Positions 30,634-38,916 are shown, counted from the stretch's first letter. The stretch: DNA of 64,000 bases from Candidatus Latescibacterota bacterium (GCA_965206595.1 OZ242214.1:704001-768000); one strand, 5' to 3'. The notes: generated from the sequence alone by a model not told the origin. Numbers and translations: made by a program.

Positions 30634-31491
30634 ATGTCACGCGATTGGGTCGACGCCGGCGAGCAGGACGAGTACCTGATCGACTACCTGTTCGATCTCC
30701 ACGGCTACATCGTCCTCAAGGGGGGGATCGCCAGGCGGGACCTCGACGAAATGAACCAGTGGGTCGACGACCACTGGAGCTACGTCGAGGGCAGGCGCCG
30801 CCAGGGGAACGCGCAGGGGGAATGGATCGGCCACGTCGAGACCCACACCTACAGCGACGCCGACGGCTGCAATTTCCAGAACATCGTCGAGGGCGCGCCG
30901 GTGTTCCGGCGCCTCATCGACTATTCGGCCTGGGTCGGCCACTGCCGCCGCTGGATCAACCCCGTCAACGGCATCTCCATCCACGAGAACCTGCTCAACG
31001 TGCGCGGCCGCGGCGGCTACATCGGCATCCACTGCGGCGGCGCCCTGCCGATCTGCTACCTGACCTTCCGCCAGGAGAACACCGGCGAGTGGATGGTCGG
31101 GCAGATCAACGTCATCGGCGCCCTGCAGGACATCGGGCCGGGGGACGGGGCCACCACCCTGATTCCCGGCAGCCACAAGTCGGCGATGCGCCACCCCAAG
31201 CTCCTCGAACAGACCTACCGCAGCGACGATGCCGCCGGCAACCAGTTCGGCATGAAGGAGCTATACCTCGAGGCCGGGGACGTGCTGATGCTGACCGACG
31301 CCATCACCCACGGCTCGGCGGCGCGCACCAACGACGGCTACCGGCGCATCACCTTGTACCGCTACTCGCCGCGATACCTGCGCAGCCGCTTCCACTACGT
31401 GCCGAGCGTGGAGCTGCTGGAAAGCCTGAGCGAAGAGCAGGGCGCCATCATCCAGCCGATCCCCCCGCGCTTCGCCCCGGGCAAACCGTAG
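30634..31491 (+). CDS. Phytanoyl-CoA dioxygenase (PhyH) family
   Basis: HGYIVLK, IHCG, IPGSHK and THGS motifs. Confidence 0.85.
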   Translation: MSRDWVDAGEQDEYLIDYLFDLHGYIVLKGGIARRDLDEMNQWVDDHWSYVEGRRRQGNAQGEWIGHVETHTYSDADGCNFQNIVEGAPVFRRLIDYSAWVGHCRRWINPVNGISIHENLLNVRGRGGYIGIHCGGALPICYLTFRQENTGEWMVGQINVIGALQDIGPGDGATTLIPGSHKSAMRHPKLLEQTYRSDDAAGNQFGMKELYLEAGDVLMLTDAITHGSAARTNDGYRRITLYRYSPRYLRSRFHYVPSVELLESLSEEQGAIIQPIPPRFAPGKP

Positions 31492-31674
31492 CGGCACCGG
31501 CACCCGCTGCAGCCGTTCCCTGCAGAGGTGCCGGGCTTTTACATGCAGCGTCACCGGCAATCTCGCCGCAGGCGTCCGGCTTCTACACAACCAGCGGGCT
31601 CATCCATCCTGCGCGGTACCCGCGCAGCCCCCGGTCCCCCGAGTAAATCCGCAAACTTCTCCTGTCGTTTTTTC

Positions 31675-31810
31675 CGATTGTCCGTCGCCCCGGGCAGGTT
31701 CCCACTCCCTGGCGGGGCCGGCAGCTCCGGGTTTCCCGCCTCATCCTGAAAGCGGCGGGCCAGGCGACAGGCGCGACGCCGGCGTCATTCCGTCGCCGCT
31801 TCCTGTCTGA
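31675..31810. repeat. Left copy of a ~135-bp direct repeat
   Basis: Matches 35481-35615, with a 79-bp identical core (31701-31779). Confidence 0.92.
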
Positions 31811-31849
31811 AGGCCACACCAGTCCCCCCATCGCCTTCGGGGAGCAGCG

Positions 31850-33854
31850 TCACCGGCGCCACGGCCACCGGAATCCCGGCGCCGAGATCCTCCGTTCGAG
31901 GAACTCCTCGGTCTGCCTGTGCCAGAGGACGAAGGTGTCCCCCACGCTCGAGGTGTCGTCGTACAGGAAGTCGGGAATCTCGTTCCTGATCGAGGTGCGG
32001 CCGAAGGCGTCTGCCTTTTCCCACACGACCAGGGACTCGGCCTGCAAGCTCCATCCCTGTTCACCGTCGCCGGCGACCTTGCGGAAGTTCTCCGGGGCAA
32101 GCAGGGCGTCGAGCCGCCGCGCCGCCCGCTCGTAGCGCCGGCCGGCGTTACTCGTTCCACGACACCGGACGGCACCAGTCCGGCAGCGCTCCGTTCGCGT
32201 GCTCCAGCAACAGGTCGCACAGCGTCCGCGAGGACAACGCCAGGATGTCCTTCGGCAGCGGCTCATCGTCGAGTTTGTCCATGATATCGGCGAGGTACCT
32301 GCGGTAGAAGTCCGTCGACAGGCGGGTGCGGATCCCTTTGACGCTGGAGTGCAGTTTGTCCGCCAGCGCATGCTTGTGGCTGGGAAGGGAGGTGTTGGTG
32401 TAGATCATCAGACACCGCTTCACCATTTCATCCGGGAAGGACTGTGGCTCTGCGTTCATCGAGATGACGAAGCAGGGGTGCTCGTTTACCGGGGGCAGGT
32501 TCTCGTCCTTGACGATGTCGAGGCCGTGCTCGGTGAAACGGCGTCGCGTGATGTCGTCGAAAACCACCGGAAAACGCCGGTAGTTCTGCTGCAGCCCGCG
32601 CAGGGTGCGGCGCGTGAAGCCGTCCTTCTCGACCGTGCTCGGGTGGCCGAACATGCTGGCGATGATGGTGTCGACCAGACTGGTCTTGCCGCAGTTCGAC
32701 TTGCCGTATATCACCGCGAACGAAGGGTAGTGGACGATGTTGGCTCCTTCGACGGTGGCGAGGGCGCGCAGATCGCAGATGAAGGGGGAGACGTAGAGCC
32801 ATGACATGAAGGTGAAGTAGTCCCGCTGTAGGCGGTGCACGTCGCCGATGAAGCCGCGCTCGTAGTTGTCGAAGTACTCGACAATCGTCCGGGCGCTCCG
32901 GGCCAGCCCCTCGCCGTCGACCTCCAGCGGCACGTTTTCACCTGAAAGCGAGACGTAGCGGGAGTTCCGGTCGATGCTCAGCTGCACCGGTCTGGAATCC
33001 TCCTCCTCCTGCCGCCCCTTGACCCAGCGCAGCTTCTTGATTTCCGCCTTGACCGCAGGAGTCAGAACGAACCTGCCCTTCTCCCGTTTCACCTGCGGCG
33101 TGACGACGCGGTCCACCGGCACCGTAAGCTCCTCCACCCTGTGCACAACCAGCGGCATTGTAAGCTCCTCTGGCGGTGGCGGCTGGAACACCGTGACTCC
33201 TTCTTCCTGGAGCACCGGGGTGTCGGTGAAAGCGATGTCCGCCCCCTTCAGATCCACCGGCAGGTCGATGCGATTGGAAGCGGTCCTCTTCACCGCGTCG
33301 TACTCGCGCGAGTAGTGGTCCCAGGCGCCGTCGTCGTCATCGAATACCAGCAGCGTTTCCGGCTGCTTGCCGGCGAAGGCGCGCTCCGAGAGGTTGGCCG
33401 AGCCGGCGATCACCCGCCGCCGCGGCGGCTCCCCGCCCTCGAGGAGATACAGCTTCGGATGGGCGACGTTCTCCCTAACCACATAGAACTCCGCCTCGCC
33501 GGCGTGGACCTTCTCCAGGATCGCCCGCTGTCTTTCGTCCCTGAGCTTGAGGGCGGCCTCCCTCAATTGAGTGACGAGGAATTGCTGAAAGGCGATGACG
33601 TCGGCGAAACGCCCCAGGCCGGCCTCGTACCCGAAGACGCATTCGAAGCGCTGGAACCCGTGCCGCTCCAGCATTCGGAGGATCATCGGCGTGCTGACCG
33701 AGTAGGTCAGCGCGCGCATCGTTTCGAAGCCGTCGAACAGGGACCAGGTGAAGGGCTCGGCGCTCCGGAAGCTGGCGGTGACTACCTGCAGCCCCTTCCG
33801 GGAGGTTGAGTCGGGATCCTCGAAGTCGAGGAGGTTTTGCCGGCCGCCGATCAT
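31850..33854 (-). pseudogene. PLD-like nuclease + P-loop ATPase (NgoFVII-like PLD domain), frameshifted at ~32149
   Basis: HPKLY...GSANLS, GKSNCGKT and VVFDD. Removing one A (TAAC to TAC) joins ...SWNE to YAGRRYER...WRR*. Confidence 0.75.
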
Positions 33855-33912
33855 CGAGTGGTGATCCGCGCCTGCTCGCCGGCTCCGTCCCGCTCGTACA
33901 TCAGCGCCCTTG

Positions 33913-34572
33913 TCACGCTGAGGTCATCTCGTGGGCCGCTTCTTCGAGCTCTTCGAGCAGGGGTATTTCTTCGGTTCCGTAGCCGAAGCGGGCGTAGACC
34001 TCTTCGACCAACTGCCAGCAGGCCTGAGCGGGGACGAAACCGGATGCCAGCGTCAACTCCCGACCGACGATGTGGTCGCCGCCGTACCGTTTCGAATCTT
34101 CCGCGAAGAGCGGATTTCCCGGGTGTCCCGATGGAAGAACAAACCCGTTTACGTTGCGGTACTCCTGCCTCATGCGAAGATCCACGCCGACGTCGCACAG
34201 CTTGAAAAGGGCCCTGGCGACCGAAAGAAAAGTGAGGGGCATTTCCTGGACGGCGTAAGGATACAACCAGTCTGCATCCGCAAAGCGGGATTGCTCCTTG
34301 AACCATTGAAAGGAGGCGTTCCTCAGGGGAGATCGCAGTTCGAAATAACCGTTTTCGAGCAGGACGATTTCCTGTCCGGTCATTCCGGTGCCTTCGATTC
34401 CCTCGGGCGTCAGTTGCGTTCTCCCGAGCCCGCGATAACCGAAGCCTCCCGGGCGCAGACCAGGAGGACTCATCAGCAGAGATCTTACCCCCTCGCTCCT
34501 GGTGCATACCGCAGCGCTGTCGAGCCGCTCGGGAACGATGAAGATCCGGTAGGTGGGCTTGGGATCGCTCAA
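33913..34572 (-). CDS. Hypothetical protein in the defence cassette (219 aa)
   Basis: TTG start preceded by AGGA and a globular-looking sequence. Its start overlaps the restored stop of the upstream gene (TTGA). Confidence 0.7.
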   Translation of the reverse strand: MSDPKPTYRIFIVPERLDSAAVCTRSEGVRSLLMSPPGLRPGGFGYRGLGRTQLTPEGIEGTGMTGQEIVLLENGYFELRSPLRNASFQWFKEQSRFADADWLYPYAVQEMPLTFLSVARALFKLCDVGVDLRMRQEYRNVNGFVLPSGHPGNPLFAEDSKRYGGDHIVGRELTLASGFVPAQACWQLVEEVYARFGYGTEEIPLLEELEEAAHEMTSA

Positions 34573-35311
34573 TCCTCTGTTTCCTGTGTATCGGCACCGG
34601 CGGTCTGCCGGGATCGCTGGTCCATGTCTGGTCCATGTACTCAATTAGCTGGTCGACATCGGTGACCGCAAGCGCTCCGGAAGTCGGTGAAACGGCTGTT
34701 TTGAATTCCAGTAGTTCTTGCCGAAGGAAGCGCACCTCAGCTCCCAGTTCGTCCAGTCTGCGGTTGGTTTCCGTTTCCGGGAAATGACTTCGGGCAAGCT
34801 CGGGTCCGAGCTCGGAAATTGGCATGAACCGCACATCGGTACCGTCTCGTTTGACGAAAACCGTTGCATCTCTCCAGCGAAATGCATGTGGCCTCCGGTT
34901 GCTTACAGGAACGCGGATTCCAACGATATCGACGCATTCACCACCGGGGCGTCGGACGGACTTCGGCTGGGCATCTATTTCCCTGATCGGTGGATCAACG
35001 AGTACCTGGCAGGAACTGCGAATGCGCTGGGCGACACTGCTGGCTTTGGAAACATGCTTCATGCCCTTGGCCACGTCGCGCCCCTGTCGCTTTCCTGTTG
35101 TTATGCCGAGGAACAGGTAACCGCCTTCGGCGTTTGCCATGGCCGTCACATCGTGGAGCAACTCAAAATCCCCGTCGTTTCCTTGTTTCCAAGGATCGGA
35201 TTTGAACTCAAGCCAATGATCCTCTGCGGTTCGGGTGTTCACAAGCTCTTCGACTTCTTCCCCGGTTATTTCTTCGATTCGCCGGTTTTCGAACCTTTTC
35301 AATTTTTCCAA
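34569..35311 (-). pseudogene. Schlafen/AlbA_2 domain protein, frameshifted by an 11-bp tandem duplication
   Basis: E-x-x-x-LEFK, DVTAMANAEGG.LFLGI. CTGGTCCATGT occurs twice at 34617-34638. Confidence 0.8.
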
Positions 35312-35480
35312 CCCTCTGCGGATGCCGGGGAGTCTTGGCAGAATGAATGTCAGCTAAGTATCCAAATGAATTGACGTTCGAGGCGGTCGACTTTCCCACG
35401 GTAGATCAAAATCCAGTCAAGGAGCATTCCCTCAGTTCCCTACGGAACATCCTGAAATACCCTCTGCTGCTGTTTTTTTT

Positions 35481-35615
35481 CGATTGTCCGTCGCCCCGGC
35501 GTAACCCCACTCCCTGGCGGGGCCGGCAGCTCCGGGTTTCCCGCCTCATCCTGAAAGCGGCGGGCCAGGCGACAGGCGCGACGCACGCCTCATTCCGTCC
35601 CCGCTCCCTGTCTGA
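35481..35615. repeat. Right copy of the ~135-bp direct repeat, including the 3' end of the CRTAC1-like gene
   Basis: Matches 31675-31810. Confidence 0.92.
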
Positions 35616-37386
35616 GCGCCACCACCGCTCCAGCGTCGAACTCGCCGAAGCGCTCGCTGCTCCCGTCCGGCCAGCGCACGGTCACCTCGAAGACCCGCGT
35701 CTCCTCACCCAACCCGAAGTGCACCTTCGGATCGCTGCTGGCCAGGTAGCTGTAGGCGGCGCGCACGTCGCGGACGAGCCGGCGCTCCCCGGCGCGAAGG
35801 CTGACCGTGGCGCCGAGGGCGTCGCGGCCGTTCTCGAGAACGACCCGGAAGGCGATCCAGCTGCCGCGCGGGGCGGCGACGTTGCGCAGCAGGTGCGCCG
35901 GCCCGTCGCAGTTGGCCACCAGGATGTCGACGCCGCCGTCCCCGTCGACGTCGCCGAAGGCCGCGGCGCGGCTGGTGAGCGCCAGCGGCTCCGCGGTCCC
36001 GCCGCGCGGGAGGGCTTCCTGGAAGAACCCGCCCGGGCCCCCCTTGAACAGCAGGTTCGGCTCGGCGTACGGGTCGTCGGCGTAGCGCCTCTCGCGCACC
36101 TCGACCTTGCCGTTGGCCTCGTACAGGTCGAAGTAGCCGTCGTTGTCGAAATCGAGCCAGCCCATGCCGAAACGGGTGAAGCGGCGGCTGGCCGCCAGCC
36201 CCCGCCCCGCGGTGACGTCGCGGAAGTACCTGCCCTCGTTGAGGTAGTAGGAGTCGGTCTCGTCGTGCATGTTGCAGACCGCGAGGTCGGGGTCGCCGTC
36301 GTCGTCGACGTCCCCGACGGCGATCCCCATGCCGGCCTTGGGCTTGCCGTCCTCGTCGACGGCGCAGCCGGCCATCATGCCGCTCTCCTCGAAACGCTCT
36401 CCCCGGTTGAGCCACAACCGGTCCATGGTCTGGTCGTTGGCGACGAAGACGTCCTGGAGGCCGTCGCCGTCGAAGTCGGCGCAGGCGACGCCGAGCCCGT
36501 TGCCGGCCACAGCCTCGAACCCGGCCGCGGCGCTGACGTCGGTGAAGGTGCCGCCGTCGTTGCGGAAAAGGCGGTCGGGAGTCGGAGCCGCGTAGCTCCG
36601 GGGCCCGCAGAACTCCGGCAGGCCGAGGGTGTTGACGCAGTCGATCTCGGAGTCCGCCCGCCAGCGCAGGTAGTTGACCAGAACGAGGTCGAGGTCGCCG
36701 TCCCGGTCGTAGTCGAAGAAGGCGGCCGAAGCGCCCCAGCCCGGGTCCCCGAGGCCGGACCCGGCGGTCGCGTCCTCGAAGCGGCCGCGGCCGAGGTTCC
36801 GCAGCAGCGCGTTCTCCCCGAGGTTGGTGACGTAGAGATCGACGTCGCTGTCGTTGTCGACGTCGCCGGCCGCCACCCCCATGCCGTAGCCCGGGGCCGC
36901 GGCTGCGGATGCCGGCGCCGCTTCGAAGTAGCCGTTCCCGCGATTGCCGTAGAGCCGGTTCGGCGGCTGCTCGGAGGGGGCGGCGGTGAGACGGCCGCTC
37001 TGGACGAGGTAGGCGTCGAGGTCGCCGTCCCCGTCGGCGTCGACCAGGGCAGCGCCGCCGCCCATGATCTGCGGCAGCCACTTCTCTCCGTCCCGCCCGG
37101 CGCTGTGCAGGAAATCGACACCGCGTTCGGCAGCCACCTCCTCGAACCAGACGGCGGCGGAAGCGGAGGTGGCGGAAGCGGAGGTGCCCTGGGAATCCGG
37201 GGTACCGCCTGCGTCTTCAGCCTTTTCACCGCAGCCGGAAAGCAGGGCGGCCGATACTGCGAGAGCGGCTGCGAGTCCCGGTAATCGACCGCAGGGGCCG
37301 GCCCCAGCCCGGACGGTCTTTTTCAACAGGCTGAAAAGCCTGGGCCCCAGCCGGCCGCCTCTCGTCTCAACCGTCATTCTTTCCAC
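35590..37386 (-). CDS. CRTAC1/ASPIC-UnbV family FG-GAP repeat lipoprotein
   Basis: Repeated DxDGDGDLD motifs, LLSGC lipobox, C-terminal HFGLG...VRWP. Start is uncertain. Confidence 0.9.
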   Translation of the reverse strand: MERMTVETRGGRLGPRLFSLLKKTVRAGAGPCGRLPGLAAALAVSAALLSGCGEKAEDAGGTPDSQGTSASATSASAAVWFEEVAAERGVDFLHSAGRDGEKWLPQIMGGGAALVDADGDGDLDAYLVQSGRLTAAPSEQPPNRLYGNRGNGYFEAAPASAAAAPGYGMGVAAGDVDNDSDVDLYVTNLGENALLRNLGRGRFEDATAGSGLGDPGWGASAAFFDYDRDGDLDLVLVNYLRWRADSEIDCVNTLGLPEFCGPRSYAAPTPDRLFRNDGGTFTDVSAAAGFEAVAGNGLGVACADFDGDGLQDVFVANDQTMDRLWLNRGERFEESGMMAGCAVDEDGKPKAGMGIAVGDVDDDGDPDLAVCNMHDETDSYYLNEGRYFRDVTAGRGLAASRRFTRFGMGWLDFDNDGYFDLYEANGKVEVRERRYADDPYAEPNLLFKGGPGGFFQEALPRGGTAEPLALTSRAAAFGDVDGDGGVDILVANCDGPAHLLRNVAAPRGSWIAFRVVLENGRDALGATVSLRAGERRLVRDVRAAYSYLASSDPKVHFGLGEETRVFEVTVRWPDGSSERFGEFDAGAVVALRQGAGTE

Positions 37387-37467
37387 CCGCCGCGGTTTCT
37401 CAGCCCGACCCCGCAGTATGGTTGCCGGCCGCCAGCCGCGGAAGGGCCGGACACCTGCTTCTCCATT

Positions 37468-38916
37468 TCAATCGGCATTTGTTCCACCCGCCTCGACTTT
37501 GCGCAACTCGGCCCCCAGCCTGCGCGTCGGCTTCCAGCCGCGGGGCGCCAGACGCTCCGCTTCCCGCAATGCCGCCCGGGCTTCCTCCAGCTTCCCCAGC
37601 TCGAGGCGGGCGTGGCCGAGACCCAGCCAGTATCCGGGCCGTGACGGCTCCAGGACGGTCAGGCGGGCGTAGGTTTCCGCGGCGCCGCCGAAGCGGCCCG
37701 CCCGCAGCTGGGCAGCGGCGAGCCACTGCAGCCCGCCGCGGTTTTCGGGGTCGAGGGCAAGGGCCCGGGCACCGGCGTCCAGGGCCCCCTCGGTTCGGCC
37801 TAGCGCTTCGAGAACGCCGGCGCGCCGGAAGTGCGTCATGAACGAGGGGTTCAGCTCGACAGCCCGCTCGGCGTGCGCCAGGGCGCGCTCGAGATTCCCC
37901 GACTGGCGGTAGGCGTCGGAGAGCGCTACCTGCAGCAGGTTGTGCCCGGGGTTGAGCGCCGCGGCGGCCTCGAGCACGCGCACCGCTTCCCGCGGCTTCC
38001 CGCTGCTCATGCAGGCAACCGCCAAGGCATAGCTCAGCGCGCCGTCCCCGGGCCGCTCTTCCACTAGGGCGCGCAGTTTTTCTATGGCATCGGGGACCCG
38101 GCCCTCGGCGAACGCCGCCAGGGCGCGGTCGCGGCGGCCGGCGAAGCCGGCGGCGTACTGATCCTGCCGGCGCTGCCAGGGGTCGTCGAAACGCGGCATG
38201 GAGCCCCCTTGGCCGCGACGAAGGGCCGCTCCCGCCTCCTGCCCGCGGCCGAGGGCGAGGTATGCCCTGCCGAGGAGCTGATGGTAGTAGGGCTCCTGCG
38301 GCTGGCGCGCGGCCAGGCTCTCGAGCAGGGCGGCCGCGGTCCCGGCCTCGCCTCGCTGCAGGGCCAGCCGCGCCAGGCCGGTGGTCCCGGCCACGTCCTG
38401 CGGGTCGAGCCTGCGGGCGCGGCGGAAGTCCTCGCCGGCTCGGTCGAGGTCCCCGGTTTCGAGCCGCCAGAAACCGCGGCGCCAGGCGATCGGGGCGTAG
38501 GTCGTGTCGAGGCTGCCGGCCTGACCCAGGGCTTCGATGGCGGGGGCCAGCGCCCCGGTCCGGGCCCGGGCCAGGCCGAGGCGGTACCAGGCTTCGGGGT
38601 CCTGAGGCCCGATCCGCGCCGCCACCTCGAAGGATGCGGCCGCCTGTTGCGGCAGCTCGTTCGCCGCGAAGGTCATGCCGAGGCGCATCCAGTCGGCGGG
38701 GTCCGTGCGGTCGGCGTCGACTTCGGCGCGGGCCCGTTGAACCGCGGCGGCGACCTCGGCGTCGAGAGGGAAATCCGGGAGCGGCGGCGGACCGGGCAGC
38801 GGGCCGCCGCCCCCCTGGCAGGAGGGGAGCCAGGCGATCAGGACGGCTCCGGCGGCCGCACCGAAAGACCGCCGTCGGCTGGGCAGCCTACCCTTCCTGT
38901 TACTCGCTGGGTCCAT
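37468..38916 (-). CDS. Tetratricopeptide-repeat protein, probably a lipoprotein
   Basis: TPR helices throughout, LPSC near the N-terminus. Typical partner of CRTAC1-family genes. Confidence 0.85.
   Translation of the reverse strand: MDPASNRKGRLPSRRRSFGAAAGAVLIAWLPSCQGGGGPLPGPPPLPDFPLDAEVAAAVQRARAEVDADRTDPADWMRLGMTFAANELPQQAAASFEVAARIGPQDPEAWYRLGLARARTGALAPAIEALGQAGSLDTTYAPIAWRRGFWRLETGDLDRAGEDFRRARRLDPQDVAGTTGLARLALQRGEAGTAAALLESLAARQPQEPYYHQLLGRAYLALGRGQEAGAALRRGQGGSMPRFDDPWQRRQDQYAAGFAGRRDRALAAFAEGRVPDAIEKLRALVEERPGDGALSYALAVACMSSGKPREAVRVLEAAAALNPGHNLLQVALSDAYRQSGNLERALAHAERAVELNPSFMTHFRRAGVLEALGRTEGALDAGARALALDPENRGGLQWLAAAQLRAGRFGGAAETYARLTVLEPSRPGYWLGLGHARLELGKLEEARAALREAERLAPRGWKPTRRLGAELRKVEAGGTNAD

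Follow-up and report, generated by a model that had tools for sequence, protein, structure and literature searches.

The cassette at 31818–35473 of the window (the whole 64,000-nt stretch of a Candidatus Latescibacterota genome that was analysed) is best read as a small, foreign-derived and composite islet of defence genes, built from two separately travelling units, inherited vertically within its genus and now decaying in this genome, a reading to which we give a probability of about 60%. The anatomy of the locus, the motifs, the distribution of the genes, the frameshifts and the repeated occurrence of this architecture are observed directly; we infer that the genes act in defence, that they have tRNase and DNase functions, that one protein is a sensor, and how the insertion came about. 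The 3.66-kb cassette lies between direct repeats at the 3′ end of a host gene of 598 aa with FG-GAP repeats and an ASPIC/UnbV domain (35590–37386, minus strand), the tail of which is duplicated. All three cassette genes are on the minus strand and encode an AlbA_2/Schlafen nuclease, a 219-aa protein (hereafter X) and a PLD nuclease joined to a P-loop ATPase. The cassette has a GC content of 0.61, lower than the 0.68 and 0.71 of the 5-kb sequences on either side. No recombinase, integrase or methyltransferase domain was found in the three ORFs or in a fourth one that was also scanned (31741–32220, 159 aa), and neither a tRNA or tmRNA gene anywhere in the window nor an Rfam match (E≤1) at 31400–35800 was detected. 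The domain scans agree with the gene content given in the initial annotation, and its view of a foreign, integrase-less cassette, bordered by a duplicated host-gene tail and carrying defence-type genes, is upheld. With target-duplicating direct repeats at both ends and mobility genes absent, the cassette follows a CIME-like pattern. The PADLOC check suggested in that annotation came back empty: the cassette proteins match no catalogued anti-phage system, and no protein has a significant match to a system model of PADLOC-DB 2.0, the best being mad8 for the PLD enzyme (E 5e-4 to 8e-4) and PDC-S50 for AlbA_2 (E 0.007), with zero matches for X. NCBIfam likewise gave no match for the three proteins.

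Judged from the distribution of its genes, the trio is two independent units and not one system. The PLD gene occurs without the other two genes at 79 of 80 loci, the single exception being the orthologous locus of a sister species (G002, which like G001 belongs to the same genus as the genome of this window, G000). X is present in 6 of 168 genomes of the phylum, with AlbA_2 adjacent every time, and four of these six, from another genus, have no PLD gene and carry a methylase where it would stand. These counts do not support the single three-gene system first proposed, and in the synteny comparison suggested with it the only other trio is the orthologous one in G002, so that the three genes effectively never co-occur elsewhere. 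We therefore consider it very improbable that the three proteins jointly make up one new three-gene defence system. The genes do lie close together in one orientation, and none of them is disrupted in G002; moreover, AlbA_2-type proteins adjoin the PLD gene at 11 of the 80 loci, ten of these being further loci at which they have an HATPase_c_4 architecture, so some functional link may exist. However, nine of these ten neighbours belong to one Latescibacterota clade, where a type I methylase lies downstream, a pattern consistent with the clustering of genes in defence islands. The 88–89% nucleotide identity with the nearest PLD relatives (loci L019 and L020) is confined to the PLD ORF (31850–33856), and GC differs between the two parts of the cassette (about 0.64 vs 0.52–0.59). 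The lesson for annotation is that this trio should not be catalogued as a system.

The first unit begins with the AlbA_2/Schlafen gene (34639–35311, minus strand, start at 35311), whose product scores 47.9 bits against PF04326 (47.7 bits in G002; cut-off 25.3). The Ex4ExK nuclease motif is present as EDHWLEFK at residues 30–37, and in an 18-sequence alignment E26 and K33 are invariant with the consensus LEFK. A PF04326 domain above cut-off, an Ex4(E/D)xK motif and pairing or fusion with a second putative sensor domain are the features of prokaryotic Schlafen (pSlfn) systems, and all are found here; from its sequence, the AlbA_2 and X pair is such a system in split form. AlbA_2 would probably be its tRNA-cutting effector and X its trigger-sensing part.

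X (33913–34572, minus strand, TTG start) is intact in this genome and is a separate gene overlapping AlbA_2 in G002. It belongs to no Pfam, NCBIfam or PADLOC family and is a free-standing version of a domain that is usually C-terminal in AlbA_2 proteins of about 440 aa. A profile search recovered 224 representatives, and among the 30 relatives scanned there were 19 AlbA_2-X fusions, two fusions with TIR and one each with FRG, HTH_37 and DUF1488; the TIR-X form matches ThsB and the FRG-X form PDC-S15. The structure model of X is good (pLDDT 83.4), and its best Foldseek match has an E value of 6e-3, while a wide VIA search reached Z 6.6, below the noise guide of 7–8, and the ESM Atlas returned unnamed clusters only. 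The weak fold matches of the model include TBP and TBP-like folds. X thus represents an uncharacterised modular domain, found with Schlafen, TIR or FRG modules and tied to bacterial immunity, that is likely to be a shared sensor.

The second unit is the PLD/P-loop gene (31850–33854, minus strand), in which an ORF of 568 aa (32148–33854) is followed by about 95 codons out of frame that end with the stop at 31850. In G002 the intact orthologue has 662 aa, and the enzyme typically has about 667 aa. In 23 PLD sequences H132, K134, G151, S152, N154, the Walker A segment G384–K390 and D433/D434 are invariant. PF09565 is matched in the G002 protein (24.4 bits, cut-off 23.8), PF13091 falls just under its cut-off (25.7–26.0 vs 27) and PF27394 is precomputed for the family; together with the PLD fold, the H-x-K ... 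G-S-x-N motif marks an HKD protein. The P-loop part has weak matches only, to RNA_helicase, AAA_23 and ATPase_2. With a poor structure model (pLDDT 64), Foldseek suggests resemblance to the NgoAVII R-protein (4rct, E 2.8e-6), the Cch helicase (1.8e-5, at rmsd 14) and SauUSI (7clg, 1.1e-4, a match limited to 164–166 columns of the PLD part, the remainder being poorly modelled), with further matches to Zucchini, NucT, Nuc and BfiI. The PLD profile found nothing meaningful among PDB sequences, and at sequence level no solved chain is matched. Neither PADLOC nor NCBIfam has a known defence family that matches this enzyme or X, and a search of the literature on PLD and P-loop defence systems and on defence in sponge symbionts found, among the papers listed, none on the PLD/P-loop family. 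The enzyme would stand alone and combine a P-loop NTPase with a single-HKD PLD nuclease of NgoAVII/Nuc/BfiI type at the N-terminus, most likely working as an NTP-driven DNA nuclease in a SauUSI- or CglI/NgoAVII-like manner. Assignment to the CglI/NgoAVII type itself is not made, there being no DEAD domain and no methylase in the cassette. Homologues number more than 1181, in MAGs of Chloroflexota, Acidimicrobiia, Latescibacterota and Gemmatimonadota, and defence-type domains (HsdM, pAgo, GmrSD, NurA, PDDEXK_13 and AlbA_2-HATPase_c_4) occur in 11 of the 42 PLD-gene neighbours scanned. The PLD/P-loop proteins are thus a large family of one-gene nuclease candidates.

Vertical inheritance and decay are seen in the comparison with the sister species. 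Cassette dN/dS against G002 is 0.20–0.31, with dS similar to that of the host gene, and the trio is intact in G002. In the present genome both nuclease genes are frameshifted: the PLD gene by one extra base, which is also found in contigs from three sequencing runs, and AlbA_2 by an 11-nt tandem duplication, after which its frame runs on to 33851 as an aberrant ORF of 486 aa. The 11-nt unit CTGGTCCATGT (plus strand) stands in two tandem copies at 34617–34638, at the AlbA_2/X junction, and its copy number sets the frame. There is one copy in G002, two in G000 and in the run X14, and three in the runs X17–X19, where AlbA_2 of near-identical strains is fused in frame to X; the corresponding ORFs have 243, 486 and 469 aa, the last one ending as X. 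One copy would thus give two overlapping genes, two copies an out-of-frame AlbA_2 and three an in-frame AlbA_2-X fusion, states that come from three lineages only and, for the runs, from assembled contigs and not raw reads. This split, broken and fused series is a natural case of fission and fusion of effector and sensor genes toggled by a short repeat. In G001 most of the cassette has been removed by a 6.4-kb deletion.

The flanking repeats are longer than first described. The right, proximal copy (35451–35622) consists of the last 33 nt of the ASPIC gene, which ends in VVALRQGAGTE*, and about 140 nt past its stop; the left, distal copy (31645–31817) is a displaced pseudo-tail of that gene, reading GVAFRQEAATE* on the minus strand with its stop at 31785–31787, and the sequence 3′ of it. 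A repeat search aligned 31701–31817 with 35506–35622 (117 nt, 94%) and 31668–31693 with 35474–35499 (96%), the two blocks being separated by a 1-nt indel, and in a seven-sequence alignment homology reaches left to about 31645/35451, for a full length of about 150–175 nt. Pairwise alignment shows an unbroken identical core of 79 nt (31701–31779 = 35506–35584). The direct repeats, the identical core and the two C-terminal readings given in the initial annotation, LRQGAGTE* for the end of the CRTAC1-like gene and a diverged FRQEAATE* on the left, were all borne out by repeat search, pairwise alignment and genome BLAST. The dispersed genome-wide element that it had named as a possible refutation is excluded, since a BLAST search of all 7,053,161 bp of the genome with the right copy as query found two copies only (100% and 91%), all other matches being of 29 nt or less. 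Over the core the two copies resemble each other more closely than do the left copies of G000 and G001, which are orthologous; such identity inside otherwise diverged copies points to recombination between the repeats, and the core reads as a gene-conversion tract, with the copies still exchanging sequence. A conserved 54-nt motif, running from ATTGTCCGTCGCCC to GCTCCGGG, lies within the repeat (31677–31731, plus strand, and 35483–35536) and is present twice in this genome, three times in G001 and twice in G002. The motif folds into a hairpin whose loop varies, with 0 of 13 pairs covarying, and stands directly 3′ of a gene at two of three other sites.

Recombination between the flanking repeats could delete the islet, and the initial annotation had the cassette gained or lost by this route. 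The sister species do not show such a gain or loss: the one loss seen, the deletion in G001, has endpoints other than the repeats, and G002 holds the cassette while the left repeat is absent. The empty site that was also sought gave a divided result. At this locus a lone cassette-free contig was found, record 26 of X19 (960 nt, depth 2.9), which joins 35847..35506 to 31700..31083 and may be chimeric, the 79-nt core exceeding the 31-nt word of the assembler; contigs of X14, X17 and X18 break inside the core. The PhyH-family dioxygenase gene of the left chromosomal flank (30637–31491, plus strand) is kept in other genera without the right-hand neighbours of this window, and in G004, G005, G006, G012 and G018 none of the right-hand genes lies within reach of the PhyH orthologue, so no synteny there is usable for the search. 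Elsewhere in the genome, empty sites do exist: among 373 local repeat pairs, inspected by eye, repeat-bracketed and integrase-less inserts at gene 3′ ends were picked out at at least four other sites, two of which are empty in a sister genome. At L122, bounded by 162-nt repeats (98.8%), both G001 and G002 have a single-copy empty site; at L130, with 454-nt repeats, the empty site is in G002. The cargo of L126 is of PDC-M30B/M41B type. The architecture is also seen around related genes: 64-nt repeats surround AlbA_2 and X at L158, and the nearest PLD relatives, L020 and L019, have the PLD gene between 479-nt and 241-nt copies, respectively, of a DUF362 gene tail. Long repeats (threshold ≥100 nt at ≥88%) were not clearly enriched around PLD genes in general (4 of 76 loci, compared with 7 of 300 random 2-kb intervals of this genome).

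We lean slightly towards the repeats at this locus being the footprint of a recombinase-free duplicative insertion, as at the empty-site loci. Another reading, which we regard as possible and short of probable, is that the left repeat is a later local duplication: in the common ancestor of G000 and G001, about 285 nt copied from the ASPIC-tail region would have gone in where the PLD gene ends, duplicating a 14-nt target, and the repeat would then tell nothing about how the cassette arrived. The state of G002 suggests this, as the 299 nt it lacks, left repeat included, are bracketed by the 14-mer GCAGCGTCACCGGC (31545–31558 and 31844–31857; 15 nt in G001), the right copy of which is the PLD gene's own end. 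G000 and G001 also look like sisters relative to G002, sharing the L130 insertion and 97% identity at L128 (vs 91–93%). However, G002 could just as well have lost the segment between the 14-mers by deletion, and over the 53–58 nt from the PhyH stop to the first 14-mer G000 and G002 align poorly, which means that G002 does not represent a clean 'before' state. At L122 and L130, moreover, cargo and long repeats arise together, the empty sites holding one copy.

It is improbable that the cassette is what remains, after stripping, of a CIME-like element that carried an integrase, with repeats that are attL and attR and a recombinase that was lost or acts in trans. Its repeats do duplicate the 3′ end of a gene, which is also what elements inserting into gene tails do, and the cassette has no recombinase. 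Against this, the PLD cargo sits in two different host genes, each with local gene-tail repeats, at least five sites in this genome have unrelated repeat sequences of 125–454 nt, and seven cargos have no shared terminal motif (best local score 23, compared with 26 for shuffles). None of the 75 other genomes of the family has the L122 cargo, although the repeats around it are 98.8% copies of a gene tail that belongs to the host itself. Returning to recombinase-free insertion, such inserts with verified empty sites are datable cases for foreign-gene insertion of this kind. A broader proposal, which we put forward tentatively and consider rather unlikely in full, is that this lineage gains defence genes by duplicative insertion, without a recombinase, where transcription units end, the target duplication of 100–480 nt being created de novo (through template switching or a staggered break and not from a pre-existing homology arm), that the repeats then serve as handles for loss, gene conversion and cargo exchange, and that the 11-nt repeat is a heritable three-state switch between two genes, off and fused.

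Integration at gene 3′ ends with duplication of the tail is found in prophage e14 and phage 21, both in icd, and in the CIMEs of Streptococcus, which carry no recombinase. The cassette shares with these elements the order of intact host gene, co-directional cargo and displaced tail copy; unlike the e14/phage 21 integrators it has no integrase, and unlike both these and CIMEs, the repeats here are long (125–479 nt) and different at each site, without shared element ends. In Campbell-type insertion-duplication, a circle with chromosomal homology yields homology-cargo-homology, reversible by recombination between the repeats, and this is exactly the topology of the cassette. That route, however, needs a donor circle already bearing the recipient's gene tail, whereas the L122 cargo is in no other genome of the family and the PLD gene accompanies tails of two distinct host genes.

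The two units also have relatives among characterised systems. In the pSlfn survey (Perez Taboada et al., Nat Microbiol 2026, PMC13056530), a nuclease domain with a catalytic Ex4(E/D)xK motif is paired with a variable second domain presumed to sense phage. The cassette unit resembles this in its N-terminal AlbA_2/Slfn nuclease domain, its motif, its variable partner and the company of defence genes. It differs in that effector and partner are two genes, whereas 97.1% of the pSlfn domains described there are fused (PMC13056530), in that the X domain also sits behind TIR and FRG modules, and in that an 11-nt repeat toggles split, broken and fused forms. The weak TBP-like matches of the X model recall the 'TBP-like' fusion class that makes up 1.5% of that survey, alongside many unannotated fusion partners (PMC13056530). 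For the second unit, the nearest parallels are CglI/NgoAVII (PMC4267653, PMC4267654) and SauUSI (PMC7913695), described as ATP-dependent restriction enzymes of the PLD family, which likewise combine a single-HKD PLD nuclease domain with an NTPase. The cassette enzyme departs from CglI/NgoAVII in holding nuclease and NTPase in one chain of about 667 aa, and from both in a P-loop part that would resemble SF3/Cch-type ATPases and not DEAD/SF2 motors, and in standing without a methyltransferase partner or a recognisable target-recognition domain.

Between its direct repeats (31645–31817 and 35451–35622), the cassette contains three minus-strand ORFs: an AlbA_2 protein (PF04326, 47.9 bits), the 219-aa protein X (33913–34572), which had no family match in any library searched, and a PLD-nuclease with a P-loop ATPase part (31850–33854; hereafter PLD). 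No recombinase or methylase was detected in a domain scan of the ORFs, and the cassette contains no tRNA gene. Its GC content is 0.61, compared with 0.68 and 0.71 in the flanks, and declines within the cassette from the PLD end toward the AlbA_2 end. We read the cassette as a composite islet of putative defence genes, now decaying, rather than as one system of three genes; its parts vary on known themes, namely a split Schlafen system and a family of putative PLD/P-loop nucleases.

The repeat search paired 31701–31817 with 35506–35622 (117 nt, 94% identity) and, shifted by one base, 31668–31693 with 35474–35499 (96% identity). In pairwise alignment, 79 consecutive nt are identical (31701–31779 and 35506–35584), with divergence on both sides, and alignment of the copies from three species extended the homology leftwards to about 31645/35451. 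When the right copy was compared with the 7,053,161-bp genome (G000), its only matches longer than 29 nt were its own site and the left copy (91%). The host FG-GAP/ASPIC gene ends within the right copy (...VVALRQGAGTE*), and the left copy is a diverged version of that gene tail (...GVAFRQEAATE*). Both the repeats flanking the cassette, one of them with the ASPIC 3' end, and the lack of an integrase or methyltransferase had been claimed in the initial annotation; the former is confirmed by the 79-nt core and its two copies genome-wide, the latter by the domain scan. The core is identical in the two G000 copies, yet about ten positions differ from the orthologous left copy of the sister species G001, which points to gene conversion between the two G000 copies. 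A conserved 54-nt motif, consisting of ATTGTCCGTCGCCC, a variable loop and GCTCCGGG, occurs in two to three copies per genome in the three species (31677–31731 and 35483–35536 in the window; L117:6969–7021, L118:7008–7061 and L119:7010–7062 in other fetched loci). Two of its three other sites lie directly downstream of a same-strand gene, and the motif showed no Rfam match and no covariation. Elsewhere in the window, an 87-nt sequence occurs three times (49395–49481, 50976–51062 and 52044–52130) with 85–87% identity and a spacing of 1.1–1.6 kb.

The initial annotation had read the trio as a three-gene defence system, a proposal that did not hold when PLD neighbourhoods were inspected in the best 80 of 271 confirmed genome loci: among these 80, AlbA_2 and X of the window type were found beside a PLD gene solely in the sister species G002 (L022). 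At the loci L019 and L020, identity of 88–89% is confined to 31850–33856, that is, to the PLD ORF alone. Of 42 PLD neighbours scanned, 17 were ordinary metabolic or transport genes and 11 carried defence-type domains (HsdM three times, AlbA_2-HATPase_c_4 four times, Piwi, NurA, PDDEXK_13/REase-ARP and GmrSD). In 10 of the best 80 loci, 9 of them from one Latescibacterota clade, AlbA_2 in another architecture was located within 3.5 kb of PLD.

Relatives of X numbered 15 in a word-indexed search and 224 representatives in a full profile search, in which X most often corresponds to residues ~220–435 of proteins of about 440 aa. Among 30 such proteins scanned, 19 have an N-terminal AlbA_2 domain; the other N-termini are TIR (two), FRG with TPR, HTH_37 and DUF1488 (one each), and 6 of the 30 showed no recognisable domain besides X. 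Matches were to ThsB for the TIR form and to PDC-S15 for the FRG form. X is thus a module exchanged among immune-type N-terminal domains. Within the phylum, X was detected in 6 of 168 genomes and is directly preceded by AlbA_2 in every one; in the four cases from another genus, the neighbours are a 250-aa protein and an N6/N4 methylase, with no PLD gene within 8 kb of X. Prokaryotic Schlafens are characterized in PMC13056530 by an Ex4(E/D)xK motif and fusion to sensor domains, a 'TBP-like' class among them. The AlbA_2 protein of the window carries EDHWLEFK, and E26 and K33 are invariant among 18 relatives. The model of X is confident (pLDDT 83.4) and gave no clear structural match, with TBP, AdoMetDC and Bet v1-like folds at noise level. 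AlbA_2 and X probably form a Schlafen system divided over two genes, in which the partner domain is modular and a repeat switches the reading frame.

The putative switch is an 11-nt unit, CTGGTCCATGT (plus strand, 34617–34638), present in one copy in G002, two in G000 and the contigs of sequencing run X14, and three in those of runs X17, X18 and X19; relative to G002, G000 thus carries an 11-nt tandem duplication near AlbA_2 codon 222. Apart from this, the 1973-nt contigs of X17–X19 match the window except at one substitution and one 1-nt gap. Computed from the AlbA_2 start, one copy gives an ORF of 243 aa whose terminal TGA overlaps the TTG start of X, two copies give an aberrant ORF of 486 aa, three give 469 aa that finish with the C-terminus of X, fused in frame as is usual in the family, and four give 254 aa, stopping before X with no fusion. 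Copy number, which varies among near-identical strains, therefore decides whether the AlbA_2 frame is split, broken or fused; these states may reflect phase variation or three fixed alleles.

The PLD gene is also damaged in G000, with one extra base, relative to G002, just 5' of codon 569. The dN/dS of the out-of-frame tail is still 0.08, indicating a recent break. An assembly slip of G000 was considered and ruled out, given that the same base is present in contigs of X14, probably the source run, and of X17 and X18, from two other studies. A second PLD variant in X17–X19, about 9% diverged and lacking the extra base, departs from window homology exactly at the PLD stop. In X17–X19, an A4 run at 33835–33838 (PLD codons 6–7) is one A shorter, a second frame change in an already broken gene.

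The locus was found in two genomes of the genus, G001 and G002. All three genes are intact in G002 (AlbA_2 241 aa, X 219 aa, PLD enzyme 662 aa; 87% nucleotide identity), with a 4-nt stop/start overlap between AlbA_2 and X. In G001 the left repeat is kept, along with ~155 nt from the end of the PLD gene; a 6.4-kb deletion joining 32006 to 38416, where the two sides overlap by 13 nt (L011:1501–1513), removed the ASPIC gene, most of the cassette and part of a TPR gene, now truncated. Given the intact locus in G002 and the remnant at the same place in G001, the cassette predates the split of the three species. Between G000 and G002, dN/dS is 0.20 for PLD, 0.31 for X, 0.21 for AlbA_2 and 0.31 for the host ASPIC gene, with similar dS. 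G002 lacks the left repeat: the ~350 nt from the stop of the left-flank PhyH gene to the PLD stop are replaced by ~60 unrelated nt. The 299 nt missing there have a 14-mer on either side (31545 and 31844), the right one being where the PLD gene ends. We slightly favour a deletion in G002 between the 14-mers; in a less favoured reading, the ancestor of G000 and G001 would have acquired a copy of the ASPIC-tail region at this place. No empty site was found at the locus in other genera; they keep only the PhyH gene, so none could be found there.

The repeat bracket is probably one case of a recurrent, recombinase-free insertion pattern. A local direct-repeat scan of G000 returned 373 pairs, of which 20 were chosen by eye and 13 annotated. 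At four further sites, the repeat is a host-gene tail and the cargo is single-copy and low in GC, with no transposase or integrase; cargo genes are co-directional with the host gene in the four clear cases. L122 (G000:C1:2413763–2416031) follows an M81 peptidase gene, with a 162-nt repeat (98.8%) and a 1945-bp cargo of one 443-aa ORF, whose product has no Pfam or PADLOC family; the site is empty, with a single repeat copy, in both G001 and G002, and none of the family's 75 other genomes has the cargo. L126 (G000:C1:4622901–4626361), at an M20 peptidase tail with a 243-nt repeat, holds DUF5131 (PADLOC PDC-M30B/M41B, E 1e-100), HD/dGTPase-like and DarG-like genes. Adjoining it is a ~1.4-kb element (L126:5041–6461) with about 25 copies in G001 at 93% identity, probably an insertion sequence expanded in that species. 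At the last two sites the host gene is an ORF of 317 or 495 aa: L128 (317-aa ORF, 125-nt repeat) has a 1040-bp cargo of two small ORFs and other cargo in G002, and L130 (495-aa ORF, 454-nt repeat) has a 1210-bp cargo of one small ORF and is empty in G002. Beyond G000, the nearest PLD relatives follow a DUF362 gene, between tail copies of 479 nt (97%) and 241 nt, and AlbA_2 with X in G128 (L158:4400–10700) lies between 64-nt repeats at an amidohydrolase gene tail. That site is a cargo hotspot, differing in content across 31 genomes of the genus g14: at least ten carry only a methylase-like gene, four add AlbA_2, X and a 250-aa gene, with G151 in between. The cargos share no common end motifs, and long repeats are not enriched around PLD genes (4 of 76 versus 7 of 300 random intervals). 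Insertion may proceed through a Campbell-type circle or by de novo duplicative insertion.

The PLD family is large and tightly conserved, with at least 1181 matches at E≤0.001 among 7999 candidates scored, mostly of 660–680 aa. In 23 sequences, the residues H132, K134, G151, S152 and N154, those of Walker A, and D433/D434 show no variation. Uncultured MAGs account for all of the best 80 PLD/P-loop loci; they belong to Chloroflexota (Dehalococcoidia, Caldilineaceae, SAR202), Acidimicrobiia (including 'Spongiisociaceae'), Latescibacterota and Gemmatimonadaceae, lineages typical of sponge symbionts. The enzyme has no sequence match to any solved chain. In a model of mediocre confidence (pLDDT 64), fold matches of the N-terminal domain were the NgoAVII R-protein (E 2.8e-6), SauUSI, Zucchini, NucT, Nuc and BfiI; for the P-loop part the match was the SCCmec Cch helicase (E 1.8e-5, rmsd 14). 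The predicted action is closest to that of the ATP-dependent PLD restriction enzymes; unlike them, however, the cassette has neither a methylase nor a DEAD motor.
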